From: Rickettsia typhi
GTDB taxonomy: Bacteria > Pseudomonadota > Alphaproteobacteria > Rickettsiales > UBA1997
DNA length: 64,000 nt
Direction of reading: 5' to 3'
NCBI GenBank assembly: GCA_945875925.1
Contig: CAMCME010000002.1
Coordinates: 1,119 to 65,118, forward strand
In this document: positions 4,723 to 53,258 of the stretch, one piece after another
Layout: each line of letters begins with the position of its first letter
Numbering within the stretch: the first letter of the stretch is position 1
Notes under the pieces: model-generated
The model's input: the letters and a program-made list of their open reading frames with translations, nothing else
Database searches by the model: none
Told to the model about the DNA's origin: nothing
Position numbers and translations under genes: made by a program

Positions 4723-5742
4723 TTAACTAAAAACATTGACTGGGCTAAGTAGATTTTCTTCAAACTTACCTAAACCAATTAATTCACCATTATTAACAAC
4801 GCGAGCATTACTTAAACAAGATGGCTTGAGAGATGCATGATTTAAATCTGCAGTAGAATCTGAAACAAAATAATTGCCTGAAACAACATTGATTGTGACA
4901 ACCTGACCATTTTTGAACCTAGCGGCATCCAGATCATTTAAGCTGATCTCTATCATAAAATCTAAGACATCGTGCAAACAAAGCATCGAGCTATCAAGAA
5001 AACGGCCGCCATAATTAGCCAGCGTTTTTAACTTAGCAAGTGAAATTGTTTTGTCGTAAAAAAATTTTCCAACTTGCAGCCTAGTAAGCTCAGATACATA
5101 TCCGCAAACGCTAATTTTTCTGCATAAATCACGAGCAAAAGATCGCACATAAGTGCCTTTGGAACATTCAATTTCGAAGTCACCGAATTCTGCAGTATTT
5201 TGAATTAATTTGGCCGAAAAAATTGTCACTTCGCGTTCTTTAATTTCAAAATCTATATCTTTACGAGCCAATTCATAAGCTCTTACACCATTAATTTTTA
5301 TGGCTGAAAATCGCGAAGGAACTTGTCTGATTTTGCCGATAAAATGTGGTAAAGCCGAAATTATTGCCGCAGTTTTTGGCCTTGCTTCACTGGTTTCCAT
5401 AACTTTTCCTTCAATATCATCACTATCACGAAACTCACCCCAAGAAATTCTAAAAAAATATTTCTTCTGAGCTCCTTCAATATATTGGCAAGTTTTAGTG
5501 GCTTTATTTAAAGCTATAGGAAGAACGCCCGAGGCAAATGGATCAAGAGTTCCGGCGTGTCCAACTTTTTTGGCACCCGTAAGTCTTTTTACAATCGCCA
5601 CAACTTTAGCTGATGAATAGCCCAGAGGTTTGTCAATATTAAGCCAGATATTTTGGGATTGGAGATTCAAGGATTTGGGAGATTGGAAATTGCGATCTGT
5701 TATGCATCTTAGCAAAAAAAGAGATTTATGTAAGAAACACAA
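4723..5742 (-). CDS. truB: tRNA pseudouridine(55) synthase TruB
   Basis: Motifs WLNIDKPLGYSS and GHAGTLDPFASGVLPIAL (catalytic Asp). The ORF-track start is TTG. The true start is uncertain (alternative TTG at 5670). Confidence 0.88.
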   Translation of the reverse strand: MCFLHKSLFLLRCITDRNFQSPKSLNLQSQNIWLNIDKPLGYSSAKVVAIVKRLTGAKKVGHAGTLDPFASGVLPIALNKATKTCQYIEGAQKKYFFRISWGEFRDSDDIEGKVMETSEARPKTAAIISALPHFIGKIRQVPSRFSAIKINGVRAYELARKDIDFEIKEREVTIFSAKLIQNTAEFGDFEIECSKGTYVRSFARDLCRKISVCGYVSELTRLQVGKFFYDKTISLAKLKTLANYGGRFLDSSMLCLHDVLDFMIEISLNDLDAARFKNGQVVTINVVSGNYFVSDSTADLNHASLKPSCLSNARVVNNGELIGLGKFEENLLSPVNVFS

Positions 5743-5762
5743 ATCTCTTTTTCTTAAATTTA

Positions 5763-6653
5763 TTAAACCGTATTGGCACCAGAAATGATGTCGATAAGTT
5801 CCTTAGTGATATTAGCTTGTCTAGTTCTGTTATAAACCAGAGTAAGATTTTTGATCATCTTACCAGCATTATTTGAAGCGGCTTCCATGGCGGCCATTCT
5901 GGCACCTTGTTCAGAAGCGCTATTTTCTAGCAATTCATTATAGATTTGCATGGTCAAACTTTTTGGCAAAAGGTCATGAAGAATTTCTTCTTGATCAGGC
6001 TCATATTGCATTGGTGATTCAAGAGCAGTCTCTTGATCAAGTTTAATATTAGCTTGTACAGGAATTAATTGCTTACAAACTTGCTCTTGCAAAATTGCTG
6101 ATTTGAATTTGCTGTAGATAACTTCGCAAACATCGAATTCATGATTAGCGTATTTTTCTACTAATTTTTGAGAGATTTCTTCAGCACTTTTATGCTCAAT
6201 AATGCCTCTGAAAATTCCAAAAACATGATCAATGATTCTTTTTCCGTAAAGTGATTTCAATTGTTCGTAGGCTTTTTTACCAACACAAAGAATTTTTACT
6301 TCGCGGCCTTCAGAGATCAAGTTATTGATGTGATTCTTAGCAAATTTTACAGTAGCGGTATTTAAACCACCGCATAAACCACGGTCAGAAGATAAAATTA
6401 CTACTAAGTGGGTAGTATTTTTACCATTGCCGGTAAGAAGTGGGAATTTTTCACTTAAATTTCCACGCACTGCAGCATTTGAAGCTAGCTCAGAAACAAT
6501 CTCGTGAATTTTTTCAGCATAAGGGCGAGAAATTTCAACCGCATGCTTAGCTTTTTTCAAACGAGAAGCCGCAACCATTTTCATGGCTTTGGTCATTTTT
6601 TGTGTCGATTTTACCGACTTAATTCTGAGTTTTAGCGATTTTAAATTTGCCAT
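5763..6653 (-). CDS. atpG: F0F1 ATP synthase subunit gamma
   Basis: 296-aa ORF with N-terminal IKSVKSTQKMTKAMKMVAASRL and C-terminal NRTRQANITKELIDIISGA. Confidence 0.93.
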   Translation of the reverse strand: MANLKSLKLRIKSVKSTQKMTKAMKMVAASRLKKAKHAVEISRPYAEKIHEIVSELASNAAVRGNLSEKFPLLTGNGKNTTHLVVILSSDRGLCGGLNTATVKFAKNHINNLISEGREVKILCVGKKAYEQLKSLYGKRIIDHVFGIFRGIIEHKSAEEISQKLVEKYANHEFDVCEVIYSKFKSAILQEQVCKQLIPVQANIKLDQETALESPMQYEPDQEEILHDLLPKSLTMQIYNELLENSASEQGARMAAMEAASNNAGKMIKNLTLVYNRTRQANITKELIDIISGANTV

Positions 6654-6667
6654 TGTCCTAGAATTAT

Positions 6668-8257
6668 TTACTGATGAGATAATCTATCATTAAGACCAGC
6701 ATGGTCGAATGAAGCAGAAGGAGTTTGATTCAAGAAAATTGCTAAAAATTCTTCAATCGCTTTTTTAAGAGCAACTTCTGTAGTTTCAGAAATTTTTTGC
6801 TCTTGTTTGATTGAAGCCAAAATTTCTGGATGTTGAGATTTTAATTTGCGTAAGAATTCTTTTTCAAAACGCACAACATCTTTAACCGGAACATTATCTA
6901 AGTAACCTTTAACACCAGTGTAAATTGAAGCAACTTGGTCTTCTAAAGTAACTGGAGAATATTGTTCTTGTTTCAAAAGCTCGGTTAATTTGCGACCTTT
7001 ATCAAGCAATTTTTGAGTAGCTTGGTCAAGATCAGAACCGAATTGAGCAAAAGCTTCAAGCTCACGGAATTGCGCCAAGTCAAGCTTAATAGTTCCAGCA
7101 ACTTGCTTCATAGCTTTCGTTTGTGCGGCAGAACCTACACGAGAAACTGAAAGACCTACATTCACCGCTGGTTTGATACCTTTGTAGAATAATTCTGTTT
7201 CTAAGAAAATTTGTCCGTCAGTAATCGAAATTACATTGGTTGGAATGTAAGCAGATACATCGCCAGCTTGAGTTTCGATGATTGGAAGTGCGGTTAATGA
7301 ACCACCACCCATTGCATCAGACATTTTAGCAGCGCGCTCTAATAAACGAGAGTGAACATAGAATACATCTCCCGGATAAGCTTCGCGTCCTGGTGGGCGA
7401 CGAAGAAGAAGTGACATTTCGCGATAAGCAACAGCGTGCTTAGAAAGATCATCATAAGCAACCAAAGCATGCATGCCATTGTCGCGGAAATATTCGCCAA
7501 CTGTACAACCAGTATAAGGAGCGAAGAATTGTAGAGCCGCACTTTCAGAAGCAGTTGCAGAAACAACCACAGAATATTTCATCGCACCAGCATCTTCCAA
7601 AGTTTTAACGATTTGGGCAACTGTTGATCTTTTTTGGCCGATCGCAACATAGATACAGAAAAGTTTTTGCTTTTCATCATTATCAGCGTGAGCTTTAGCT
7701 TGGTTGATGAATGTATCTAACACGATTGCAGTTTTACCAGTTTGACGATCCCCAATGATCAATTCTCTTTGTCCACGACCAATTGGAATCAAACTGTCAA
7801 TTGCTTTGATACCCGTTTGCATTGGTTCGCCAACTGATTGACGAGCGATAATTCCAGGAGCTTTAACTTCAACACGACGATATTCAACATCTTGTAACGC
7901 ACCTTTTCCGTCGATTGGATTTCCAAGAGCGTCAATAACGCGGCCCAAAAGACCTTTTCCAACTGGAACTTCTACAATTTTACCAGTTCTTTTAACATCA
8001 GAACCTTCCTTGATTGTTTGAGCATCACCGAAAACTACGATACCAACATTGTCAGTTTCAAGGTTAAGTGCCATGCCTTTAACACCAGAAGCAAATTCAA
8101 CAAGTTCACCAGCCTGAACATTATCAAGGCCATAAACTTTTGCAATTCCGTCACCAATTTTAACTACTTCACCGATTTCTTTAAGTTCCGCAGAAGTTCT
8201 GAAATTCTCGATTCTTTTTTGTAGGATGTTGGAAAATTCTTCGACTCTAAATTCCAT
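6668..8257 (-). CDS. atpA: F0F1 ATP synthase subunit alpha
   Basis: 529-aa ORF with P-loop GDRQTGKT and conserved [22 protein letters not shown]. Confidence 0.95.
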
Positions 8258-8302
8258 AATATTTTGATTTTTGGTTGTTATGAATTTTGTTAATTAAGAC
8301 TT

Positions 8303-8851
8303 TTAATTAATGGCGCTGGCGAATTCTTGACTCAAATTCAGCAACTGATTTTTCAGACTTGCATCAATGACATCAGAACCGATTCTAACTTGAAAACCAC
8401 CTAGAATTTGTTGATTGATGGTTTTTTTAACTTCGATCACTTTATCCGAATATTTCTTTTCGATTAAAGCTTTTATTTGGCTTAACTGCGCTGCTTCAGG
8501 CTCGGCAGCAAAGGTTATTTCTGCTTCTAAAATATTTTTTTGTTTTTTTAGTAACACAGAAAATTCTGCGTAAACTTCTAAAAATAAACTCAATCTTTTA
8601 TTGTCAGCAAGAGTTAGAAAGAAGCTAGAAACAATTGGCTCAAAAGAAAATTTTTGAGTAATTTCTTCCATAATTTTAACTAAATCATTTCTTGAAATTA
8701 CCGGATTTTGCAATTCATTAGCAAAATCATAAGTAAAATGACTTTTGAAAACTTCTAATTCTGCTGCGATTTTATCAACAGCATTATTTTTTTTAGCTGC
8801 TGATAACAAGGCTTTAGCATAATTTCTAGCAATGACAGAGGATTTTAGCAT
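8303..8851 (-). CDS. atpH: F0F1 ATP synthase subunit delta (OSCP)
   Basis: 182-aa ORF starting ..IARNYAKAL, with the GG..V.IG....D.S pattern near the C-terminus. Positioned upstream of atpA. Confidence 0.85.
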   Translation of the reverse strand: MLKSSVIARNYAKALLSAAKKNNAVDKIAAELEVFKSHFTYDFANELQNPVISRNDLVKIMEEITQKFSFEPIVSSFFLTLADNKRLSLFLEVYAEFSVLLKKQKNILEAEITFAAEPEAAQLSQIKALIEKKYSDKVIEVKKTINQQILGGFQVRIGSDVIDASLKNQLLNLSQEFASAIN

Positions 8852-9017: not shown

Positions 9018-10976
9018 CTATCTGCCTTTATCCCACACAATAAAAGGAGAAAGACCGAGTTTCCACTTAATATAATCTTTTGAAATAATGCGCACCCATC
9101 TTATTATTATATCGTCAACTTCATTATTAAGTGCTTGTGCTATAGATAATTTTTCAATCTCAGTTGCCCAAGATCCACAGCTAAATAAAAATATTTTATC
9201 AGCATGATCTTTGATCATTTCATGATTTAAGATTTCTTGATAACTACTATGATTCCGATAGCTCTCTCCACCATCGTTAATAATATCTGCAGTTATTCTT
9301 AACATCATTTCTTGTAATAATTTTTCACCATCTGCAATTTCAGAAAAGGCCGATTTTAGAATTGCGAAACTCACTTCCATTTTATCAAAAATTTCTCTTC
9401 TTAATTTTGACATTTTATCTCGGTGCCAATCCATAAAGAAGGCAATGTCGGATATTTTATAAAGAGAAATAAAATGATGATCTTCGTCACCAGAAATTTT
9501 CAGAATTGGTTCTGGAAAATAAAATGGGGCCTGAGACAAATTAATAGATCTTTTTTGCGAATTATCAGAGTTAATTTCCAGATCATTAATCTTTTCATCA
9601 TAGCTATCGAAGATAAAATATTCAGATTCACTATCGCGAATATTCTCAAGAAGAGACCAAATATTGGCAATTGGCAAATATGGCGCTACATCTAAACAAA
9701 CAACTAAATCAGCTTTTGGAATAAACTCATTACTCGCATCTAAAGTGATGAAAGTTTTATTTTCTTCACCTGCGAAATATTTACAATTATCACGGATAAT
9801 TTCTTCAGAAATATTCACCCCAATATAGCGCAAATTTTTGTCGGAAATCAGCTGATTATTTGCAATTTCGTCTCTATTTCCGCATTGAATTTCTAGAATG
9901 GAGCTGATGTTTTGAAGATGCTGTTTGATTGCATCAAAATATGGTTTTACCTGTGAATTGTTAGTCGATTTAGCAAAAATATTTTTTACTTTCTCAATAT
10001 TTGAGACCTCTTGCCATTCTTCAAAAAGACCCTGTTTAGAATGTTCGCGTATTTTTCTGTTTCTAAAATCAAGACCAGAAAATCTTTCGTAATCTCGCAA
10101 AGTTCTTACATTTCCATGAGAATATTTTTCAATATCTTGTAACGCTTCTGGATTAGAAGAAATCTTGGTTCCAGTAATATGCAAAACTCTTTCTTTAGAG
10201 ATCGCATCTCTTTTATTGATTGCAGGATTATCATCCCAAACCAAGGCTCTGTCTTGTTGCCCAACTCCTATAGGATTATAAAGATGAAAAATTATAATAC
10301 GGTGAGGAACAAACAGATCATATCCAGATGTCCAGAGCCTTATCGCCGTAGTTATTTCTTCACCTAAAAAGAAAATAAATGGATCATATGGAATATTTCT
10401 GACATCAGATAAGGTAAAAGAAAATCCTGCTGAAAATAAGGCGTGATGAATTGGAGCGCTAAGATTTAAAGCATATCCTCCCGTAGTTCTGGCGACTCCT
10501 TCATGGCTAAAAAACACTCTTGAATTAGGAGTGTGACCACGAAGTTCTTGACCTATTTCATATCCACATACTGCGGTTGTTAGAAGCGGTTTATGGCCTT
10601 TATCAATAAGATCTTTGCAAGATATTACGCAGGTTTCATCCCAATTTTCTTCAAATCTCATATGAGAATCGATGGTTAGAAACCATTTCTCACCTTGCCA
10701 TAATTTTTGTATTTGGCTTCTTGCCCAACCAACTCCTTTGCTTTCCAAATGATGTATATTTTCAATTCTTAATTGATTTGGTCTTGGAAAAGGAATCTGA
10801 AAAAGACGAGCATCAGAGTCATCTTGCATATTATATTGGTGACATATTCCGATAAAAATATTTTCCGGTCTTTTGGCTTTTTTAAAAATATCTTGAAGAG
10901 TGTGTTGTAATTCTGGATCTCTATAGCTGGCTATTGAAACAAAAATACTATCGTCATCACTATATAAGTTCTGCAT
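9018..10976 (-). CDS. Multidomain protein: GlcNAc-transferase-like (GT60/PF11397-like) N-domain fused to a class-I SAM-methyltransferase-like domain and a helical C-terminus
   Basis: 652 aa. N-terminus has FVSIASYRDPEL..T..DI...A..PENIFIGICHQ and LTIDSHMRFEENWD, as I recall for the cytoplasmic Skp1 HyPro GlcNAc-transferase family. The middle has ILEIQCG..(19)..YIGVNIS...DLVVCLDV, a Rossmann MTase-like pattern. The domain calls are from memory. Confidence 0.55.
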   Translation of the reverse strand: MQNLYSDDDSIFVSIASYRDPELQHTLQDIFKKAKRPENIFIGICHQYNMQDDSDARLFQIPFPRPNQLRIENIHHLESKGVGWARSQIQKLWQGEKWFLTIDSHMRFEENWDETCVISCKDLIDKGHKPLLTTAVCGYEIGQELRGHTPNSRVFFSHEGVARTTGGYALNLSAPIHHALFSAGFSFTLSDVRNIPYDPFIFFLGEEITTAIRLWTSGYDLFVPHRIIIFHLYNPIGVGQQDRALVWDDNPAINKRDAISKERVLHITGTKISSNPEALQDIEKYSHGNVRTLRDYERFSGLDFRNRKIREHSKQGLFEEWQEVSNIEKVKNIFAKSTNNSQVKPYFDAIKQHLQNISSILEIQCGNRDEIANNQLISDKNLRYIGVNISEEIIRDNCKYFAGEENKTFITLDASNEFIPKADLVVCLDVAPYLPIANIWSLLENIRDSESEYFIFDSYDEKINDLEINSDNSQKRSINLSQAPFYFPEPILKISGDEDHHFISLYKISDIAFFMDWHRDKMSKLRREIFDKMEVSFAILKSAFSEIADGEKLLQEMMLRITADIINDGGESYRNHSSYQEILNHEMIKDHADKIFLFSCGSWATEIEKLSIAQALNNEVDDIIIRWVRIISKDYIKWKLGLSPFIVWDKGR

Positions 10977-11010
10977 TTCTATCTAGTTTATTTTTACCTT
11001 ATTGAAAATT

Positions 11011-12072
11011 CTATCTATTTACCGGATCAACATTTTCTAAATTCTCATAATGCCCTGAATCAAGTTCGTGTTTTTTATCAGTCTTGGTGCTAGCAATGTG
11101 AAATAAAGCATCTCCTTTATTGGCCAAAGGCAGCATTGACATGCCAACAATTATTCCATCTTCATTGGCTTTTATTAGAGTTCTGTGATCGCCAAAAGGA
11201 TTGGCAATTTCGCCAAGCACTTCACCTTTTTTAACTAATTTACCTAATTTTTGATGAGGAATATGAATGCCACTTCTTGGAGAGCGCACCCATGAACTTG
11301 AACGAGCAACAAAGATTTTTTTCTTAGAAACTTCGCAAACTTTGGCTTTGATCATGCCAATTTCGCGCATGAAATTTAAAATTCCTTCAACTCCAATATT
11401 AATTACTTCTTCGCTAAATCTTAAAGCTTCACCACCTTCATAAAGCAGCATCGGAATGTCTAAACCAGCTACAGATTCTCGCAAAGAACCGTCGCGCAAA
11501 TTAGAGTCGATAATTACAGGAGCGCCGAAGGCTTTGGCTAAATTAAAAGTTTTTTCATTATCGATATTAGCGCGAACTTGTGGATAATTATTGCGATGAA
11601 AAGCACCAGTATGAAGGTCAATTCCGTAGTCAGATTGCATCACAACTTCACGCATAAATTTATAAGCAAGTTGCGAAGCCAGAGAACCATTTTTCAAACC
11701 CGGAAAACAACGATTTAAATCGCGACGATCTGGCAAATAACGCGAACGATCATTAAAGCCAAAAATATTAACAATTGGAATCGCAATCAAAGTGCCGCGA
11801 ATATTTTTAATAACGCCCGATTTTAAAATTCTTTTAACAATTTCAATGCCGTTAATTTCATCACCATGAATTGTGGAAGAGATGAAAAGAGTTGGACCAT
11901 CTTTTTTCCCGCAAACAACTTCGATAGGAATTTTTACATCGGTGAAATCATAAATCGCACCCATGTCGATATTAACGCGTTTGCGTTCACCTCTTTTGAC
12001 AGAAACACCATCAATCTTAATAACAGTTTTATTTGATAGATTGGCAGATTTGCTAGAAATTTTATCCTGCAT
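11011..12072 (-). CDS. Succinylglutamate desuccinylase/aspartoacylase-family (M14-like) zinc deacylase
   Basis: 353-aa ORF with zinc-binding HGDEINGIE, a later DLHTG histidine, and a C-terminal beta-rich extension typical of this family. Confidence 0.75.
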   Translation of the reverse strand: MQDKISSKSANLSNKTVIKIDGVSVKRGERKRVNIDMGAIYDFTDVKIPIEVVCGKKDGPTLFISSTIHGDEINGIEIVKRILKSGVIKNIRGTLIAIPIVNIFGFNDRSRYLPDRRDLNRCFPGLKNGSLASQLAYKFMREVVMQSDYGIDLHTGAFHRNNYPQVRANIDNEKTFNLAKAFGAPVIIDSNLRDGSLRESVAGLDIPMLLYEGGEALRFSEEVINIGVEGILNFMREIGMIKAKVCEVSKKKIFVARSSSWVRSPRSGIHIPHQKLGKLVKKGEVLGEIANPFGDHRTLIKANEDGIIVGMSMLPLANKGDALFHIASTKTDKKHELDSGHYENLENVDPVNR

Positions 12073-12214
12073 TATTTTTGCATTAAATTGTTAGTCATAT
12101 CAAAATATAAAGGCTTGCCGCTTGAGAATTTTGGCTCATAAAGCGCATTGACAAAGTGGATTTCTTTTTCACAATCGCACCTTCTCTCATAAGTCTTCCG
12201 AACCAATTGCAATC

Positions 12215-12718
12215 TTGATTCAAAATAACATGACCATTACAGATAATAAAATCCTAATCATAGACAATGTTTTTACGCAAGCCGAATGTTCAGCCTTAAT
12301 TGAATATTATAATATTAGCGGCCCCACCCATAAATGGCAGAATTTTCTGCCGATGACTATAAAACAAAATGATGAGTTTTTAAGCCCTAGAATTAAGAAA
12401 ATAGAAAATTTAGCAAAAAATAATTTTGATCAAAATATAGTTATCGATTGGTGTGAAATTGTTAGATGGCCTGTTGAAGCTTTCCAAAATTTGCATTTGG
12501 ACACTTCAAATAAAAACACCATTTTAACATCAATCACTTATTTGAATAATGAATATGATGGCGGCCAAACTTTTATATATGAAGATATTGAGGTCATTCC
12601 AAAAATAGGCAGAACGGTGATTTTTAACGGCCAATTTTACAAACATGGTGTGAGAAAAATTCTATCAGGATCAAGATATACTTTACCAATTTGGTATAAA
12701 ATGAATGATGCTGTTTAA
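12215..12718 (+). CDS. 2OG-Fe(II) dioxygenase, prolyl 4-hydroxylase-like (paralogue 1)
   Basis: HxD...H...R triad (HLDTS, YKHGV, SGSRYTLPIWY) and YLNNEYDGGQT motif. The likely start is the ATG at 12230 rather than the TTG at 12215. Confidence 0.7.
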   Translation: MIQNNMTITDNKILIIDNVFTQAECSALIEYYNISGPTHKWQNFLPMTIKQNDEFLSPRIKKIENLAKNNFDQNIVIDWCEIVRWPVEAFQNLHLDTSNKNTILTSITYLNNEYDGGQTFIYEDIEVIPKIGRTVIFNGQFYKHGVRKILSGSRYTLPIWYKMNDAV

Positions 12719-12850
12719 GCTAAAATTTATAGCATGTTTTTGCTGCTAAAAAATCTAGGAATGAAGCAATTTATCTTTGCTTGATTATTTCCAAGCTGGA
12801 TCCTAGAAGGAAATCAAATTTACAATTACTCGAAAATAAATAAGTTCAAA

Positions 12851-13372
12851 ATGTCCTCTACAAACAATAAAATCATAGTCCTAGATAATGTTTTTACCAA
12901 AGAAGAATGTTTATCAATGACCTCTTATTATGATAACAACATCTCATCTTCTCAATTCAGCAAAGAAACTCTAAATAACTTTATCGACATCAATCTAAAT
13001 GATAGTTTTTTATCTCCTAAAATTAGAAAAGTAGAAAACATCGCCAGAAATAATTATGATCCAAATATAGGAATTGATTGGGGCCATGTTGTAAATTGGC
13101 CAGTTGGAGCTTCTCATAATTTGCATCTTGATTTCAGAAAACAAGACACCGTTTTATCATCAATAACATATTTAAATGATGATTACACTGGCGGAGAAAC
13201 CTTCATAAAAGATGATTTACAGATTATTCCAAAGGTGGGCAGAACTATATTTTTTAATGGTCAGCAATATGTACATGGTGTGAAAAAAATCTTATCAGGA
13301 TCAAGATATTCTTTACCACTTTGGTATAAAATGTATGACCCTGCTTTAAACGGACCGAAAATTACGCGTTAG
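12851..13372 (+). CDS. 2OG-Fe(II) dioxygenase, prolyl 4-hydroxylase-like (paralogue 2)
   Basis: 173 aa. Collinear with the preceding ORF (HLDFR, YVHGV, SGSRYSLPLWY, YLNDDYTGGET). Tandem duplicate. Confidence 0.7.
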   Translation: MSSTNNKIIVLDNVFTKEECLSMTSYYDNNISSSQFSKETLNNFIDINLNDSFLSPKIRKVENIARNNYDPNIGIDWGHVVNWPVGASHNLHLDFRKQDTVLSSITYLNDDYTGGETFIKDDLQIIPKVGRTIFFNGQQYVHGVKKILSGSRYSLPLWYKMYDPALNGPKITR

Positions 13373-13375
13373 AAT

Positions 13376-14323
13376 TTATATTTTTGGACGATTTAAAAAC
13401 GCATAAGATAAAATTTTATAGCATAATTTCGCCGCCAAGAAATCGCATGAATGTAACAATTTTACAGGCGCTAATTCTACCACATCGGCGCCCACAATAT
13501 TACAAATTTTACTAGCTTCGCGAATAATATCTAAAGCATCTTCCCACATCATTCCACCTGGTTCTGGAGTTCCTGTTGCTTGCATTAAACTTGAATCGAA
13601 TCCATCCAAATCAAAGGTTACAAAAACTGGGCGACCTCTTAAAGATTCCACAATTTTTTTGGCATCCCAAGTTCTTTTATCTTTGGCAAAGTGAATGGTG
13701 ATGCGGTGCGCATTGGCTTCAAGATAAGGAATTTCGCTGGCTGAAATATTGCGAATTCCGCAAGAAATTAAAGTTGAGATTGGATTGTCCATCACACGGC
13801 GAAGTGCGGCGGCGTGAGAATAATGTTCGCCATCATAACCATCGCGAAGATCAGCGTGAGCATCAAAATGCAAAATTGCCAAGTCCGGATATTTTTTTAC
13901 AAAAGGACGAATTGAACCCGCGGTGATTGAATGTTCGCCACCCAAAATTAAAGGAAATTTTCCAGCATCTAAAATTTTCTCAGTGATTTTTTCTAACTGT
14001 TTTAAAGATTTTACAACTGAACTTTTATCAATTTTTGGTTCTTTCAAAGTGGCCACGCCATATTTGCGGAAAGCTTCGCACCAAAATTCTTCATCAAAAA
14101 GTTCAACTTGTTTTGAAGATTTAATAATTGCCTTCGCACCATTTTTTGTGCCGCCGCCATAACTAACAGATGCTTCTAAACCAAATGGCACAACGATTAC
14201 TTTCGCTTCATCAATTGATTTTAAATATTTCTCTTCAACACCCAAAAAACCACTTTTTTGCGATACAAATTCTAATGAATCGAGTGGCGATTTTACTGAA
14301 TTTTTAGCAATTATTTTTGTCAT
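13376..14323 (-). CDS. speB: Agmatinase (arginase/ureohydrolase family)
   Basis: 315 aa with Mn-binding motifs GGEHSIT, HFDAHADLRD and VTFDLDGFD. Confidence 0.85.
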   Translation of the reverse strand: MTKIIAKNSVKSPLDSLEFVSQKSGFLGVEEKYLKSIDEAKVIVVPFGLEASVSYGGGTKNGAKAIIKSSKQVELFDEEFWCEAFRKYGVATLKEPKIDKSSVVKSLKQLEKITEKILDAGKFPLILGGEHSITAGSIRPFVKKYPDLAILHFDAHADLRDGYDGEHYSHAAALRRVMDNPISTLISCGIRNISASEIPYLEANAHRITIHFAKDKRTWDAKKIVESLRGRPVFVTFDLDGFDSSLMQATGTPEPGGMMWEDALDIIREASKICNIVGADVVELAPVKLLHSCDFLAAKLCYKILSYAFLNRPKI

Positions 14324-16490: not shown

Positions 16491-17546
16491 ATGAAAACTT
16501 ATACAGAATTGCCATCGTCCAAAAAAACAACTCTTCCTGAAATAGAGAATTTATCAGGAGTAGTTGAAGAAAAGATTAAGAATGTCTTTATAAAAAATAT
16601 TGTAAAAAAATTTCTTGAAAATCTAGAATCACAAGAAGAAATATATGAAATCAACTCATTTATCGATACTTATAGTGAAGATCACGGGCAGAAATGTGAG
16701 GCATTTGTCCGAGCCATTAAAATGATGCGTTCCTTTACAGAAGGAAAATCAAAACCTAGCAATAGGGATATTGATAGGTTTGATAGTTTTGTAAAAAGTG
16801 TTGGAGTAGATTTTTGTTTTCAACTTACCAATGAGAGTAATGGATTGCTGCATTGCTTAACTCAGATTGGTGGACCACTAGAATTTCTAGAAGTTCTAAA
16901 AAATAATAATGCCGATTTTGCTTCCTCTAAAAGCGATTACCTTAACACACCGCTTCTTTGGGCAATAGCAAATGCCCAAAATGATTTCGCTGTAAGTTTT
17001 CTAGATTTCTCTTCTACCAATAATCTAGATGTCGGAATTGATCATCGCGCTTATGGTCACAATACCGCCTTGCATTTGGCCGCTGCAAAGGGATATGTCG
17101 ATCAAGATTATGACAAGGTAAAATTAAGAACATCAAGCGCCCAACTTACTCAAAATCTTATTAACAACGGCGCCAATCCTAATATTCTAAATGATCTTCA
17201 GTATAGCCCTCTTGACTTGGCGGTAATTCGTGGGGATTTAGAAACTACTCAAGCAATTTGTTCATCTTCAATTCTCAGCCACGAAACAATTACAAAGGCA
17301 CAAACTATAATTGAGGAAAGACAAAAAAATTCTCAGAACAATCCTGAATCTGCTAAAGAAGTAATATCTTTAATAACCCCAGAAAAAACTTTTCTAAATC
17401 CAAATGCAGGCAATTTTACAATAGAAAATATTCAAGAATTACAGAATTTATTAGAACAGACAAAATCTAAAGGACCAAGTAGCGCTATATCTCTATCAAA
17501 AGCAAATTCACTTATGCCCATCTCTGAACGCTGCATAATTTCATAA
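16491..17546 (+). CDS. Ankyrin-repeat protein (candidate host-interaction effector)
   Basis: 351 aa with at least three ANK-like units (TPLLWAIANAQNDFAVSFL; NTALHLAAAKGY; SPLDLAVIRGDLETTQAI preceded by LINNGANPN). No signal peptide. Confidence 0.7.
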   Translation: MKTYTELPSSKKTTLPEIENLSGVVEEKIKNVFIKNIVKKFLENLESQEEIYEINSFIDTYSEDHGQKCEAFVRAIKMMRSFTEGKSKPSNRDIDRFDSFVKSVGVDFCFQLTNESNGLLHCLTQIGGPLEFLEVLKNNNADFASSKSDYLNTPLLWAIANAQNDFAVSFLDFSSTNNLDVGIDHRAYGHNTALHLAAAKGYVDQDYDKVKLRTSSAQLTQNLINNGANPNILNDLQYSPLDLAVIRGDLETTQAICSSSILSHETITKAQTIIEERQKNSQNNPESAKEVISLITPEKTFLNPNAGNFTIENIQELQNLLEQTKSKGPSSAISLSKANSLMPISERCIIS

Positions 17547-45013: not shown

Positions 45014-46678
45014 TTATTGATGTAGATTTAGATAGTGCTTTGTTGCTTCAGTATCCAAAAATTTAGGATAAGTTTTTACTAGCCTCTTTCCATTCTCATC
45101 GAAGCTCATTGCTTCCATTAAACCGCTTTCAGCAACATCAATATTTTTTTCTCTTATTCTTAAATAGTTCTTTTGAGTCCATCCTAAAATACATTTATGA
45201 AGAGCTTTAACTGCTCTATAATCAGGCATAATTGTTTTACTTTCCATTTGAAGACCCATGACATTTAGACATAGCCCTAAAATTTTTATAGATAGGTAAT
45301 TAGGGAATTCTTCCATCCTTTTTATTTCTGAATAAATACGGCGACATAGTCGGGAATGAATTATTTTTTGGGCATGATTTCTTTGATCAACAAAGCTAAA
45401 ATAATTATTCCATACTGTATTATGCTGCACTTGCCAGCTAGTATCAAAAGGAGCTTTAACGGAAGCAACATTGGACAAGACATCAAACATCGATTCGACT
45501 AGAACATCATAGTAGTCATTAAAGTGACCACTAGATTTTAATTTTCTCCTAATTGCTGATCCGTCTTTTTCTTTTAACAGCTTTACTAGATCTTTAATAA
45601 AATCTGAAACTACCTCAAGTCTTCGATAAGCATCAGTATTATAAAAATCGGAAACATTATTGATTTTATAAATATCAGTACATCTTCCAGTAATGAATCC
45701 TAGCGTTCTGTTAAAAGTGGTTTGATGAGTATCGATAGTGCTATTCTCTAAGCAGTCTTTTACAAAAATCAGAAAAGATTTTGTGTAAACTTTTAACTGC
45801 GATGCGTCTAAGCTCGACAGTGTTTTGTAGTCTATGTCAAAGGGAGTTTGATGAGATAAAGAGCTGACTAATTTACAGTTTCCAAAAACTGCTTTACTGA
45901 ATGGTTTTATATAGCCAATTAGACCTGAATTATATCCCTCATCTTCATGATACAAAATTGAGTCTTTATCAAGCAATGCTTCAGCAGCAATGTTGGTTGC
46001 AAAAGTACCAATCGGCAGTTGATATTTTCTATTTCGAGTCATTTCCTCAAAGAATGCTATGGCTGTAATCGGAGTGTTAGATACAATGTATTTGCAGAGC
46101 TTTCTATTTCCGATTAACAGAAGTATTTCGTATGCACATTGACCAATATCAAATTTATTTTTTGTGTTACGATTTTTTTCATCCTTCTTTTGCCAGCTTG
46201 GAATAACAATATTTGAATATTTAACAATATTTGGGGCTGATCGATTTAACTCGTTGGCGATAATGGGTAAATCTACTGCTGATCCTTTTACAATCTCCCG
46301 ATAAAGCTCTTGAATAAATCTGGTATAATTTTTCTTAGAAAAAACCGGAGGTATTATGAATGCATACCGAATCCAGCTAGATAATAAGATAACAAAAAAA
46401 GTAGCGAAGCTTGATTGCCAATAAGCCTGAACACTTAAAAAGCTTGGCATCATCCATCCTTTTTCAAACCAAACGTCACTTAATAAAGTTCCAACCGCAA
46501 TTAACAGGGTCAGTAAAAAGGTTTCCGTTAGCAAAGATATCTTTTCGAACGATGTTGGAGCTATAGAGATACGAAATTTGTAGCGCGTATCAGTGATTGT
46601 ATATAGCACCATTAAAAGCGAAAATGCTGCGATAAATTCAGCAAAACCAAAAATCGGATTTTTTATTGGGATTGGCAT
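45014..46678 (-). CDS. Orphan membrane-anchored protein (about 4 N-terminal TM helices plus ~420-aa soluble helical region), no recognisable family
   Basis: Long uninterrupted ORF (554-569 aa depending on the start; ATG at 46678 preferred). It has hydrophobic N-terminal segments and I recognise no catalytic motif. Confidence 0.55.
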   Translation of the reverse strand: MPIPIKNPIFGFAEFIAAFSLLMVLYTITDTRYKFRISIAPTSFEKISLLTETFLLTLLIAVGTLLSDVWFEKGWMMPSFLSVQAYWQSSFATFFVILLSSWIRYAFIIPPVFSKKNYTRFIQELYREIVKGSAVDLPIIANELNRSAPNIVKYSNIVIPSWQKKDEKNRNTKNKFDIGQCAYEILLLIGNRKLCKYIVSNTPITAIAFFEEMTRNRKYQLPIGTFATNIAAEALLDKDSILYHEDEGYNSGLIGYIKPFSKAVFGNCKLVSSLSHQTPFDIDYKTLSSLDASQLKVYTKSFLIFVKDCLENSTIDTHQTTFNRTLGFITGRCTDIYKINNVSDFYNTDAYRRLEVVSDFIKDLVKLLKEKDGSAIRRKLKSSGHFNDYYDVLVESMFDVLSNVASVKAPFDTSWQVQHNTVWNNYFSFVDQRNHAQKIIHSRLCRRIYSEIKRMEEFPNYLSIKILGLCLNVMGLQMESKTIMPDYRAVKALHKCILGWTQKNYLRIREKNIDVAESGLMEAMSFDENGKRLVKTYPKFLDTEATKHYLNLHQ

Positions 46679-46701
46679 AACATGGCATATGCTCAAAACT
46701 A

Positions 46702-47155
46702 TTAATTTACATGCTGGTTCCATACTAGATACTTGTTTAGTCCCCTTGAATAATGGACAGGGTTTTGGTGAAAAACTTTCGAGTTTTTCTTAAACTCTTG
46801 GATAAGAAATTCAAAAGGTGTTTTAAAGGCAAGTGATTTTAGTTTTTTCGCAAAATTATAGGCAAGCATGAATTGATTCAGATGCTTTTCCAAATGCTCT
46901 AAACTGTCATAGTGATAGGTTTTTGTAGTGGCGTCTTTAATCGTTCGATTGGTTCGCTCTACTTGTCCATCTACTTGTCCATTGGTCCAAGGGTGTCTGA
47001 ACTTTGTGAGCTTATGTTTAATCGCATGTTTTTTGCAGAGTAAATCAAATGGGTGAAACGATTTGGGGCGCAAGTGTTTGACTAGCAAAGCGTAAGTGAA
47101 CTGAGCTCCGTTTTCCGTTAAAATTCTGTGAATCTTGTAAGGACAAAGCTCAATT
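46702..47155 (-). mobile_element. Remnant of an IS481/IS3-type transposase (DDE 'rve' integrase core, C-terminal part only)
   Basis: PYKIHRILTENGAQFT...HPWTNGQV(DGQV)ERTNRTIK...YNFAKKLKSLAFKTP. There is no N-terminal HTH part and no terminal inverted repeats were seen. The 5' junction position is approximate. Confidence 0.7.
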
Positions 47156-48340: not shown

Positions 48341-49053
48341 TAATTGGTTTCCGGTTTTTTTCTTGATAAAAGCAGTAAAGTTGTGGACACAGCCACTATA
48401 ATTAAAATCACATCTGAAGAGCGTTTAAGCAAAAAATTATCAGATAATTTATCTTTCAAGCGCGTCCATTTTTTTTCATCAACTTCAAAAGTTTGAGATT
48501 TATTTAGCCACACATCTTGGTCTTCTAGTTTTTTGCCTAAATAATATTTTTCAATTTCGCGATGCACAGGATGATTGGTTGAAGTCATAGGATTTTCTGA
48601 CAAAATGTCCTGAGTTTCAACTTTTTGATCATCAACCAAATTAGCAATTTCCGCGACATTTCTGGCCACTAAAAATAAGGCCACAAAAACTATTAAAACA
48701 ATTGCTGCGATGGAAATTGTGCCGAAAAAGATCTCTATCAAAGACTGATTTTCTGTTCTTTTAGGAGATTTTACAAAAATTGTGCTGTGAGTTGAAATCA
48801 AAAATAAAACCACCATCGAATAAGCCACCAAACCCAAAACAATTTCTTTAAAACTATTATAGCTGGAAATAGAAATGCTTAAAAAAAGCACTAAAATTAA
48901 ATGAGAAATTATCAGGCTGATGATAGTGGAAGTGCGAGTTTTGACTTTGGTGATGATCAAAAAATTGATTACCACAAAAACCAATATCACTAATAATTTG
49001 GGGTCAAAAAGCATTGATATATTAGGTTGGTTTTGGATCACAACTGCTGTCAT
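48340..49053 (-). CDS. Polytopic membrane protein of unknown function
   Basis: 237 aa with about five hydrophobic helices. Its TAA overlaps the pyrD ATG by 1 nt (TAATG). The annotated ATG lies inside repeat 49047-49132, and an alternative start MLFDPK lies 13 codons in. Confidence 0.5.
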   Translation of the reverse strand: MTAVVIQNQPNISMLFDPKLLVILVFVVINFLIITKVKTRTSTIISLIISHLILVLFLSISISSYNSFKEIVLGLVAYSMVVLFLISTHSTIFVKSPKRTENQSLIEIFFGTISIAAIVLIVFVALFLVARNVAEIANLVDDQKVETQDILSENPMTSTNHPVHREIEKYYLGKKLEDQDVWLNKSQTFEVDEKKWTRLKDKLSDNFLLKRSSDVILIIVAVSTTLLLLSRKKPETN

Positions 49054-49132
49054 CTCGAACGCTAGTGAGAGATCTCATGAGGCTTTAACTCGATAAACTC
49101 ATGAGATCTCTCACTAGAGTTCGAGATGACAA
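49047..49132. repeat. Palindromic element, family A (GTCATCTCGAAC variant)
   Basis: CTGTCATCTCGAACGCTAGTGAGAGATCTCATGAG arms with an inverted partner, between the dapD stop and the membrane-protein start. Confidence 0.9.
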
Positions 49133-51971: not shown

Positions 51972-52106
51972 AATTTTAGATAAATTGAATGGATTTTTTT
52001 TTGCACTAGTTCTAAGTTGCGGGGATCTTTACAGAGCTTGGCTGCAGTAAGACGCAAAGCGCTCGCGCATGTTATGCAGCCGCAAATCCAATGTCAATTT
52101 AAGATT

Positions 52107-53258
52107 ATGTTTCAGCAGCAATTCAGAGTTTTTTTTAGAAACTTTCTAATATTCTTCATTTTTCTCGCAACAAGCTTAGTTAGCGCAAATGCTCAGCAAT
52201 CAAATATTTACATGATTGAAGGCACTGCAATTAGCGCTTCGGCAAAATCATCTGGCGAAGCAAAAGTTGTGGCCACAAATAACGCCAGAAGAAATGCTTT
52301 TATCACTTTACTTTCTAGTCTTTCAATCAATCCAAGCGCCGCAGATACAATCTCTAATGACCGTATTTTTGATATGGTGAGATCAGAACAAATCACTGAA
52401 GAGAAAATTTCAGGTAGCACTTATTCGGCCACTTTTAATATTTTATTTTCTAAAAGTGCGGTTGAGAAAGTTATTAATGTGCAAAAAAATATCGCTAATG
52501 AAGAAAATTATTTATTAATTCCAGTGAAAATTTTGCAGAAGAAAGAAATCAAAGCAGATGCTTATCCAAGCAAATATGCCATATGGGAAGAACATAACGA
52601 TTGGAAAATTGCGATTGCGGAAAAGTTAAAAGAGAAAGCTTTAACAAAATTCATCATTCCTGAAAATGACATCAATAATATCGCCATCATCAATCAAGAT
52701 AATATTGATCATATTGAATATAGCGATCTTGAGCCGATCTTAAATAAATATAAAGTTACAGAAGCTTTCGTGGTGTTTTTTGCTTTTGATGACATTGAAA
52801 ATAAAGTCAGCATTTCAGTACAAAATATTAAAAAATTACAAAAGAAAAAAGTTAAGCTTAGCTTCGTGAATGTCGATTTATTGAATTATAAAGCCTTGCT
52901 GAAAAAGGTTTCAGAAAAAACAATCGATTATCTAATTAGCTCAAAAAGCACTGAAGCTGTGAAGATGGAAACTAGTTTGGTGAAGATTGAAATTCCAATT
53001 TCTAACTTGGTGCAATGGATGGGAATTAAGAATAAAATCGAAACTAGCAATCTAGTAAGTCAGATGAATATCGATTCTATTTCTAAAGATTTTGCGATGA
53101 TCTCGGTAGGCTATGTTGAAGGTCAGGTGGATATTGTGGATGCTTTTGCAAAAGTGGATTTTACTTTAGAAAGAAAGTCAGAAAATTCTTATAAACTTTA
53201 TACATCATCTCCAAAAAAATTAGCGACCATGCCCGCAACTATAACAGAGCAGCAATAA
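52107..53258 (+). CDS. Secreted protein of unknown function (possibly DUF2066-like)
   Basis: Signal-peptide-like start MFQQQFRVFFRNFLIFFIFLATSLVSANA. Divergent from purM and followed by an AI-2E transporter, a context I recall for DUF2066 proteins. The family call is weak. Confidence 0.45.
   Translation: MFQQQFRVFFRNFLIFFIFLATSLVSANAQQSNIYMIEGTAISASAKSSGEAKVVATNNARRNAFITLLSSLSINPSAADTISNDRIFDMVRSEQITEEKISGSTYSATFNILFSKSAVEKVINVQKNIANEENYLLIPVKILQKKEIKADAYPSKYAIWEEHNDWKIAIAEKLKEKALTKFIIPENDINNIAIINQDNIDHIEYSDLEPILNKYKVTEAFVVFFAFDDIENKVSISVQNIKKLQKKKVKLSFVNVDLLNYKALLKKVSEKTIDYLISSKSTEAVKMETSLVKIEIPISNLVQWMGIKNKIETSNLVSQMNIDSISKDFAMISVGYVEGQVDIVDAFAKVDFTLERKSENSYKLYTSSPKKLATMPATITEQQ

Follow-up and report, generated by a model that had tools for sequence, protein, structure and literature searches.

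Genes for a GT60-methyltransferase-like fusion protein and two P4H-type oxygenases on either side of a conserved deacylase gene in Rickettsia typhi

Genes and proteins of the atpH-speB interval

In a 64-kb stretch of DNA from Rickettsia typhi, here called the window (the term always refers to the whole stretch), four genes lie between atpH and speB. The GT60-MTase-CT gene (9018-10976, minus strand) encodes a protein of 652 amino acids (aa) with a GT60 glycosyltransferase domain, a methyltransferase (MTase)-like domain and a helical C-terminal domain (CT). It is an accessory gene located between astE and atpH. astE (11011-12072, minus strand) encodes a 353-aa zinc deacylase of the AstE/AspA family, while Oxy1 (12215-12718, plus strand) and its paralogue Oxy2 (12851-13372, plus strand) encode small, standalone 2-oxoglutarate (2OG)/Fe(II) oxygenases of the prolyl 4-hydroxylase (P4H) type with 167 and 173 aa, respectively. 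An original prediction had described all four as accessory genes wedged in between the atp operon and speB, and as a single cassette resembling the Skp1-modification pathway of protists. The four open reading frames (ORFs) that it had described are present in the ORF list of the window at these coordinates and contain the motifs quoted for them. On balance, we favour a different organisation in which the region, as judged from comparison with related genomes, is a mosaic of a conserved backbone and two separate accessory insertions and not one cassette. In the following, cut-offs are the bit-score cut-offs of the Pfam or TIGRFAM profiles, L numbers refer to compared loci or contigs (genome or viral), and P numbers to protein clusters or homologues.

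The GT60 catalytic domain comprises residues 1-320 of the 652-aa protein (10017-10976, minus strand) and matches PF11397 (GlcNAc/GT60) with an E value of 3.2e-56 and 191.8 bits (cut-off 21). The protein also matches phrog_24687 (E 3e-63), and contains the motifs SYRD at residue 17 and DSH at residue 103. In an alignment-based AlphaFold2 (AF2) model with a predicted local distance difference test score (pLDDT) of 85.7 and a predicted template modelling score of 0.86, the protein folds into three parts, i.e. a GT-A domain (residues ~1-320), a Rossmann-type domain (residues ~340-507) and the helical CT (residues ~508-652), the last with lower pLDDT. When the folds were compared using Foldseek, the top 13 matches of the GT-A domain were GalNAc-T2, GalNAc-T12, GalNAc-T7, PGANT9 and TgGalNAc-T3 of Toxoplasma (E 1.8e-10 to 4e-07), followed at lower rank by collagen hydroxylysine (Hyl)-galactosyltransferase and then by polysaccharide glycosyltransferases (GTs). 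Thus, in the model, the fold of the GT60 domain is nearest that of the GT27 polypeptide GalNAc-transferases. Alignments of 19 and 59 homologues show no variation at the DxH motif (D103-S-H105), E206-E207, R213 and H231. Searches of the PDB with the 652-aa protein and with the GT60 profile yielded no relatives, and there is no GT60 structure in the PDB. Both the profile score and the GT27-like fold bear out the earlier assignment of this domain to GT60 and not to an unrelated GT family.

Gnt1 and the other protist polypeptide alpha-GlcNAc-transferases (CAZy GT60) belong to the same Pfam family as the window GT60, which scores well above the threshold; the likeness is predicted to extend to DxH in place of DxD, a GT27-like GT-A fold and a soluble, cytoplasmic nature. 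By contrast, the window GT60 belongs to a bacterial and phage clade and is fused to the MTase-like domain and the helical CT; moreover, Skp1 and the downstream enzymes PgtA and AgtA of the Gnt1 pathway are not evident in the window. GT60 has been set beside GT27, with the DxH motif and polypeptide O-glycosylation in common, and has been listed for 'prokaryotes and protists' (bioRxiv 10.1101/2019.12.31.891697).

The MTase-like domain (9456-9959, minus strand; residues ~340-507) resembles class-I S-adenosylmethionine (SAM) methyltransferases. Methyltransf_12 is matched at residues 362-448 (E 7e-6) with 27.1 bits, i.e. just below the cut-off of 30, phrog_3382 (methyltransferase) is matched with an E value of 2e-16, and the Foldseek matches, which include PH0226, ToxA, ChlM, NodS and EvdMO1, have the class-I SAM MTase fold. 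The earlier description of this domain as SAM-methyltransferase-like therefore stands with respect to the fold, while the Pfam score falls short and motif I is unusual, reading 'EIQCG' as opposed to 'DAGCGD' in most relatives. 'EIQCG' is kept throughout the subfamily (P0004, L012-L014, L019). At the acidic position that follows motif I, Asp is present in 49/59 sequences and in each of the five subfamily relatives (5/5), and Asn388 is unique to the window copy. Because Asn388 replaces the usual acidic residue, the methyltransferase activity of the window copy is uncertain; the stronger reading of a decayed MTase domain was rejected because the whole subfamily shares the unusual motif I and N388 alone is specific to the window.

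The CT (9018-9455, minus strand; residues ~508-652) has no Pfam match. Beside the window protein, it was found only in P0004/L001, L012, L013, L014 and L019, and it occurs invariably together with this MTase subfamily, whether in a fusion protein or in a separate MTase-CT gene adjoining GT60. In the closest relatives of the window GT60 (46-50% identity; L012, L013, L014 and L019), MTase and CT make up a separate gene next to GT60. Because MTase-CT adjoins GT60 as a gene of its own in these closest relatives, the sequence comparisons indicate that GT60, the MTase-like domain and CT belong together as a conserved functional module, which is fused in some cases only.

Oxy1 and Oxy2 are 55% identical, each matches PF13640 (2OG-FeII_Oxy_3) with ~40 bits (cut-off 27), and both contain the HLD, YLN, HGV and SGSRY motifs. 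On public contigs, Oxy1 starts at the ATG at 12230, giving 162 aa, and this is likely the true start. H92, D94, H142 and R152 (Oxy2 numbering), which make up the HxD...H iron triad and the basic 2OG residue, are invariant in 60 family members. When a profile of the family was compared with solved structures, the best match was the Bacillus anthracis P4H (3itq/5hv0; E 3e-13) over nearly the full length, followed by P3H1, PHD2, PiuC and the PBCV-1 P4H. In agreement with this, the top 50 Foldseek matches in the PDB of an AF2 model of Oxy2 (pLDDT 95.4) are all prolyl hydroxylases, and include PBCV-1 vCPH, Pseudomonas putida PPHD (TM-score 0.77, root mean square deviation 2.8), the B. anthracis P4H, PHD2, P3H1 and an algal P4H. 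Altogether, the modelled fold and the motifs justify the label 'P4H-type', and the original reading of the two small ORFs as tandem paralogues of this type was correct. Compared with the B. anthracis P4H, PPHD (4j25/4iw3) and vCPH (5c5t), which are the best fold matches of Oxy2 (TM-scores 0.70-0.77), Oxy1 and Oxy2 share PF13640 and the HxD...H plus basic residue; however, with 162-173 aa they are ~40-50 residues shorter, share only 17-22% identity, belong to a separate, large and phage-rich subfamily, and form a tandem array with variable copy number.

In an exhaustive search, this family of small oxygenases had 10,050 representatives with E<=1e-3, of which 2,111 had E<=1e-10. Among the top 150 relatives, almost all are standalone proteins of 150-180 aa, the few multidomain proteins are Oxy-Oxy tandems or DUF6065-Oxy, and none of the 150 is fused to GT60. 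Similarly, neither GT60 nor an MTase was present within 6 kb of a small oxygenase in 81 viral loci (0/81). Oxy1 and Oxy2 score 190-200 bits on the hidden Markov model (HMM) of the small family, whereas P4H domains fused to GT60 score only 26-53 bits, although the HMM still detects them (E 1e-14 to 4e-6). We conclude from these scores that the small standalone and the GT60-fused oxygenase subfamilies are related but distinct. The nearest non-self homologue of Oxy2, which is 45% identical, is encoded on a T4-like phage contig (L091, 2730-5169 and 8001-8495) together with the gp45 sliding clamp, the gp44/62 clamp loader and RegA; this contig also carries genes for UDP-glucose dehydrogenase and epimerase. 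The best PHROG of both oxygenases is phrog_2297 (E 1e-31 to 2e-37, the latter for Oxy1). It is labelled 'DNA endonuclease' even though its members carry the full 2OG/Fe(II) motif set and the P4H fold; judged by these features, the label is probably wrong.

The divergent astE/Oxy1 intergenic region (12073-12214) contains promoter-like hexamers on both strands, i.e. TTGACA-16-CACAAT at 12148-12175 on the plus strand and sites at 12103-12074 and 12098-12071 on the minus strand, all of which are putative and consensus matches only. astE and the GT60-MTase-CT gene are co-directional, and because the 34-nt gap between them has no terminator-like site, the GT60-MTase-CT gene is probably read through from astE. 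No transmembrane segment or signal-like N-terminus was found in the four proteins, all of which appear to be soluble and cytoplasmic.

The conserved backbone and its accessory genes

As proposed originally, the astE product is an AstE/AspA-type deacylase. It matches PF24827 (AstE_AspA_cat) with an E value of 2.6e-39 and 135.2 bits (cut-off 25), contains the zinc-site motifs HGDE (residue 69) and DLH (residue 152), and has 3cdx (E 6e-25) and the DoeB deacetylase (6twl) as relatives in the PDB. Its orthologues, which number in the hundreds, are 64-76% identical and make up more than 120 clusters from 'Rickettsiales'/alphaproteobacterial metagenome-assembled genomes (MAGs); by contrast, the best non-self match is 42% identical for the GT60-MTase protein and 45% for Oxy2. 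The neighbouring speB (13376-14323, minus strand), which flanks the oxygenase genes, is a backbone gene encoding agmatinase as judged by synteny and by TIGR01230 (197.9 bits; cut-off 174). In L255-L258, the gene order is purK-speB-astE-atpH-atpA-atpG-truB-rpsO-pnp, speB and astE overlap, and there is neither an oxygenase nor a GT60 gene. Because the speB-astE overlap persists in these relatives lacking both accessory elements, we conclude from synteny that the deacylase gene is a core gene, the ancestral operon partner of speB and native to this position. Thus, it is not wedged in as had been proposed. Moreover, the 10 kb around GT60 contained no AstE homologue in the best 80 GT60 loci (0/80).

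In a sister species with an astE that is 76% identical (L252-L254, L260 and L261), a single oxygenase gene lies between speB and astE, and there is no GT60 gene; the encoded oxygenase is an Oxy1 orthologue with 85% identity. The GT60-MTase-CT gene is absent from the astE-atpH position in L252-L258, L260 and L261. In the species of the window, it is present in all three genomes compared, while the oxygenase genes number one (Oxy2 alone, L002), two (window) or three (L259), Oxy1 having been lost in L002 through a ~670-bp deletion. Because the sister species has the Oxy1 orthologue without a GT60 gene at this locus, the two accessory elements would have been inserted independently, which argues against the single acquisition that had been proposed. 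Likewise, the four-gene cassette does not recur, i.e. relatives have astE alone or astE and one oxygenase gene without GT60. The variation between one and three oxygenase copies in close strains suggests a fast-evolving accessory function.

The original prediction had considered a eukaryotic host or a giant virus as the source of the genes, and had proposed to compare their codon usage and GC content with the flanks. The GC content and GC3 of the accessory genes are unremarkable in that they are inside the spread of the genes of the window, and all three accessory genes exceed the core gene atpH in GC content; recent foreign origin was rejected in the sense that no compositional signal was found. 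The best 120 protein matches of the 652-aa protein carry no eukaryotic name in any source, and GT60 has its nearest relatives in Alphaproteobacteria (46-50% identity) and phages (35-41% identity). In total, neither the nearest relatives nor the base composition give a sign of a eukaryotic or giant-virus origin, with no phylogeny including protist sequences behind this statement.

The genes flanking the interval are atpH, atpA and atpG on one side and speB, purK, rlmE and an ankyrin-repeat gene on the other. atpH-atpA-atpG (4726-8851) are directly followed by truB-rpsO-pnp without atpD or atpC, and the F1 operon is split in the window genome and in every relative examined. No additional GT gene was found from atpH to purK in the ORF list or with Pfam, including any downstream GT of the Skp1 pathway that would extend the glycan. 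The ankyrin gene noted originally is real: it adjoins rlmE at 16491-17546, is confirmed by Pfam, and is itself accessory, its position in relatives being occupied by a ~100-aa ORF without assignment (L252-L254), a large M23 peptidase gene (L255) or nothing (L257).

GT60 and P4H-type domains in other bacteria and phages

Searches among bacterial species representatives yielded 513 stretches with GT60 relatives, the best of which are alphaproteobacterial and 46-50% identical to the window GT60. The hosts are mostly Alphaproteobacteria/'Rickettsiales' MAGs, magnetotactic bacteria, Oxalobacteraceae and Gallionellales. At least 558 viral contigs also encode GT60, there in the form of a standalone protein of ~415 aa. 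We surveyed the 10-kb neighbourhoods of the best 80 of the 513 loci. The fusion of GT60 to an MTase, which had been thought to be undescribed, is widespread, being present in ~35 of these 80 loci and in dozens of protein clusters.

Using an iterative profile, a P4H-type domain was detected in 31/80 loci, i.e. 24 in which one ORF encodes both this domain and GT60, and 7 in which it is encoded by a gene adjacent to GT60. Pfam independently confirms six GT60-P4H fusions, and the fusion proteins P0085, P0086, P0094 and P0104 also exist. Simple fusions occur alongside giant ones, in which a single ORF of 1,300-2,450 aa encodes two to five tandem GT60 domains together with AhpC/TSA, 2OG-FeII_Oxy_3 (P4H-type) and 2OG-FeII_Oxy_4 domains; the giant fusions are found in 'Rickettsiales'/alphaproteobacterial MAGs in the range L020-L083 (e.g. 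L021:7994-14020, L083:5957-13324 and L028:9815-13924). GT60, MTase and a P4H-type oxygenase all co-occur in L029, L056, L065 and L072. Finally, in L009 (922-7096), a GT60-P4H fusion is encoded two genes from a gene of the HPAT family (PF23452; 38.8 bits, gathering threshold 23.9), the family of hydroxyproline (Hyp) O-arabinosyltransferases; a sugar epimerase gene and a second GT60 gene are also present on this contig. Because of these domain fusions and adjacencies in 31/80 loci, a functional link between P4H-type oxygenases and GT60 in bacteria is well supported by sequence at the family level.

Divergently upstream of the giant fusions, a gene for a ~270-aa protein with a sulfotransferase-like 'GMHRSGTS' P-loop and no Pfam match is present in 19 loci. 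Clustering of the neighbours of the giant fusions gave no functional partners, in that it returned only lysS, HAD, argH, lysA, M23 peptidase and photolyase genes, which represent clade synteny, and one apparent neighbour family was an antisense artefact of GC-rich genomes.

For the window specifically, the link is weaker because GT60 and MTase are absent from the vicinity of the small oxygenases in the viral loci (0/81), the closest GT60-MTase-CT relatives (L001, L011-L014 and L019) have no oxygenase within 10 kb, and Oxy1 occurs without GT60 in the sister species. The originally proposed scheme of hydroxylation followed by glycosylation thus holds as a coupling of P4H-type and GT60 domains in the family (31/80 loci), while the oxygenases of the window belong to a subfamily that is otherwise unlinked to GT60. 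In LH3/PLOD3, in the mimivirus protein L230 and in the PhyA-Gnt1 pathway, a 2OG oxygenase makes a hydroxyl and a GT-A glycosyltransferase glycosylates it. The GT60-P4H fusions of other bacterial genomes would follow the same logic, although LH3/PLOD3 and L230 differ from them in GT family and domain order; in the window, by contrast, the two activities are encoded by separate genes with separate histories.

In 11 loci (L031, L042, L047, L049, L050, L051, L054, L062, L066, L075 and L078; e.g. L049:4625-9973), the gene for a large, mucin-like Pro/Thr (PT)-repeat protein lies directly upstream of the GT60 or GT60-MTase gene, with a median gap of 9 nt. The PT-repeat proteins, which are candidate substrates for glycosylation, reach a length of 1,783 aa; their Pro content is 15-20% and their Thr content as high as 25%, with repeats such as 'APTDTP' and 'EPPVTT', and their hosts are Pseudoduganella, Duganella, Noviherbaspirillum, Gallionellales, Azospirillum and others. 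The Azospirillum example (L066) also contains Ca-binding RTX repeats (GGxGxD), and genes for type I secretion (HlyD, TolC-like, ABC) are present within 5 kb in 5-8 loci. In L062, the gene for a TadE-like protein with a PT-rich tail is followed by GT60 and then by an adjacent P4H-like gene. Glycan-decorating neighbours are also recurrent, i.e. sulfotransferases (L011), an FkbM/RfbT-like MTase (L014) and the sulfotransferase-like P-loop gene of the giant fusions. Because PT-repeat proteins and type I secretion genes recur near GT60, a protein acceptor is favoured for the bacterial GT60 family on the basis of gene context.

Gram-positive serine-rich-repeat adhesins offer a parallel, in that a cytoplasmic O-GlcNAc-type GT (GtfA/GtfB) is encoded beside a huge repeat protein that is later exported. 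The analogy applies to the PT-repeat loci and not to the window, which encodes no such substrate; moreover, the adhesin systems involve GT4, Ser-rich repeats and accessory Sec, whereas the related loci have GT60, Pro/Thr-rich repeats and type I secretion. Literature searches on GT60/PF11397, bacterial P4H-GT fusions and prokaryotic Gnt1 found nothing describing them; within the searchable literature, neither the P4H-GT60 fusions nor the PT-repeat neighbours seem to have been described.

The best genomic GT60 match, L011 (7331-13767), has a gene for a protein with ankyrin repeats and a U-box, an architecture like that of eukaryotic E3 ligases, immediately upstream of two GT60 genes, and two sulfotransferase genes follow this GT60 pair. 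In the window, to which the originally suggested search for proline-rich targets was confined, no Pro/Thr-rich ORF was found. The ORF at 45017-46789, in which the local Pro density is highest and which has hydrophobic N-terminal segments, was considered as a substrate and rejected as an ordinary orphan; it is one of three window ORFs without a Pfam match, the others being 48343-49074 and 51984-53255 (591, 244 and 424 aa, respectively, from stop to stop).

Interpretation of the locus

In the mosaic that we favour, the conserved backbone purK-speB-astE-atpH-atpA-atpG would have received two separate accessory insertions. A single small oxygenase gene, Oxy1, would have been inserted between speB and astE and later have expanded and contracted to one to three copies, and the gene for GT60, the MTase-like domain and CT would have been inserted between astE and atpH, later or independently. 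The GT60 domain is predicted to be an intact, DxH-type, retaining GT-A enzyme, and we infer that it most likely moves an N-acetylhexosamine, probably GlcNAc, from a UDP-sugar to a protein hydroxyl of Thr/Ser or Hyp. The MTase-like domain and CT would be an obligate partner of this GT60 subfamily that either methylates the product or helps to recognise the substrate. Oxy1 and Oxy2 would be Fe(II)/2OG-dependent protein prolyl-hydroxylase-like enzymes from a phage-rich and very large family whose members are standalone proteins of ~160 aa. The deacylase may share a role in core metabolism with agmatinase and have nothing to do with the other three proteins. Gene identities, folds, catalytic residues, the history read from synteny and the co-occurrence statistics of the family are shown by the comparisons, while donor, acceptor and a flow from hydroxylation into glycosylation are inferred.

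Several points weigh against this explanation. Two rare accessory gene types lie ~1.2 kb apart around one core gene, a proximity that is unlikely to be due to chance unless the site is an insertion hotspot. With a P4H-type domain fused or adjacent to GT60 in 31/80 loci, functional independence may understate the real coupling. The substrate search yielded no Pro/Thr-rich ORF within 64 kb. Finally, the proposed donor and acceptor specificity is extrapolated from distant eukaryotic enzymes, with no characterised bacterial GT60 in the searchable literature and, as far as we found, no characterised member of the small, phage-rich P4H-like family.

It is possible, though we hold it tentatively, that the two accessory elements form a relay without the deacylase, in which Oxy1 and Oxy2 would hydroxylate a proline of a cytoplasmic protein and GT60 would add GlcNAc to the resulting Hyp, i.e. 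the chemistry of PhyA followed by Gnt1, acting consecutively on one substrate that could be a bacterial or a host protein. The 24 fusions and 7 adjacencies of a P4H-type PF13640 domain with GT60, of which Pfam confirms six fusions, the four loci combining GT60, MTase and oxygenase, the HPAT-family gene near the fusion in L009, and the order of PT-tailed protein, GT60 and oxygenase genes in L062 are in line with such a relay, as is the closeness of two elements that are both accessory. However, the window oxygenases belong to the small standalone subfamily and not to the GT60-fused one (190-200 versus 26-53 bits), none of their best 150 relatives is fused to GT60 and none of the 81 viral loci has GT60 or an MTase nearby, the closest GT60-MTase-CT relatives lack an oxygenase within 10 kb, and the Oxy1 orthologue persists at the locus of the sister species without GT60. 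If there is a relay, it might, again tentatively, be a loosely organised instance of a wider, apparently undescribed prokaryotic and phage toolkit for hydroxylation followed by glycosylation, which also exists as fusion proteins, some of them giant, and could be the source of the protist Skp1 pathway. A version of the idea in which all four genes form a unit, so that the AstE-like enzyme would de-N-acetylate the transferred GlcNAc and the MTase would then N-methylate it in a NodB/NodS-like manner, would fit with the shared strand and 34-nt spacing of astE and the GT60-MTase-CT gene and with the N-methyltransferase NodS among the structural matches of the MTase-like domain. It is already contradicted by synteny, since astE is a core gene that overlaps speB in relatives lacking both accessory elements, with orthologues that are 64-76% identical across many MAGs and with AstE homologues absent from the 10-kb surroundings of all 80 GT60 loci, and we regard it as highly improbable.

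Even less credence is due to a host-directed mimic of Skp1 modification, obtained from a eukaryotic host or a giant virus and acting as secreted effectors on Skp1 or another host protein, which we consider barely credible. Ankyrin-repeat proteins are encoded in the genome, an ankyrin and U-box gene directly precedes two GT60 genes in L011, and the protist Skp1 enzyme Gnt1 belongs to GT60 according to the Pfam family description. Nevertheless, the nearest GT60 relatives are bacterial (513 matches, the best with 46-50% identity) and from phages (at least 558 contigs), no eukaryotic name is among the best 120 protein matches, GC and GC3 are within the range of core genes with atpH below all three accessory genes, the region has no downstream GT of the Skp1 pathway, and there is no evidence of secretion. 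It is unlikely, although less far-fetched, that the GT60-MTase protein acts in the synthesis or decoration of a glycan not linked to protein, e.g. lipopolysaccharide, capsule or a glycolipid, with the MTase capping the sugar and the oxygenases unrelated. This would agree with relatives named 'glycosyltransferase involved in cell wall biosynthesis', with three GT2 genes ~5 kb away in L001, with fusions to Glycos_transf_2 domains, and with an MTase fold that resembles, among many others, those of the sugar methyltransferases NodS and EvdMO1. The neighbouring sulfotransferases (L011) and FkbM/RfbT-like MTase (L014) also point in this direction, but would suit a protein-linked glycan equally well. 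By contrast, the best fold neighbours of the GT60 domain are polypeptide GalNAc-transferases and the collagen Hyl-galactosyltransferase with polysaccharide GTs ranked lower, the GT60-MTase protein has no transmembrane segment, GT60 is repeatedly fused to domains of the protein-hydroxylase type, and PT-repeat protein genes lie immediately upstream of GT60 in 11 loci.

For the window, the result is mostly deflationary: on the mosaic reading, the region is not a Skp1-like cassette but a variant of known enzyme kinds. The wider family, with its P4H-GT60 fusions and PT-repeat neighbours, is the more interesting result. The PT-repeat-GT60 loci of culturable genera (Pseudoduganella, Noviherbaspirillum and Azospirillum) make substrate and function accessible to genetics and glycoproteomics, and the recurrent P4H-GT60 fusions argue for hydroxylation-dependent protein glycosylation outside eukaryotes.

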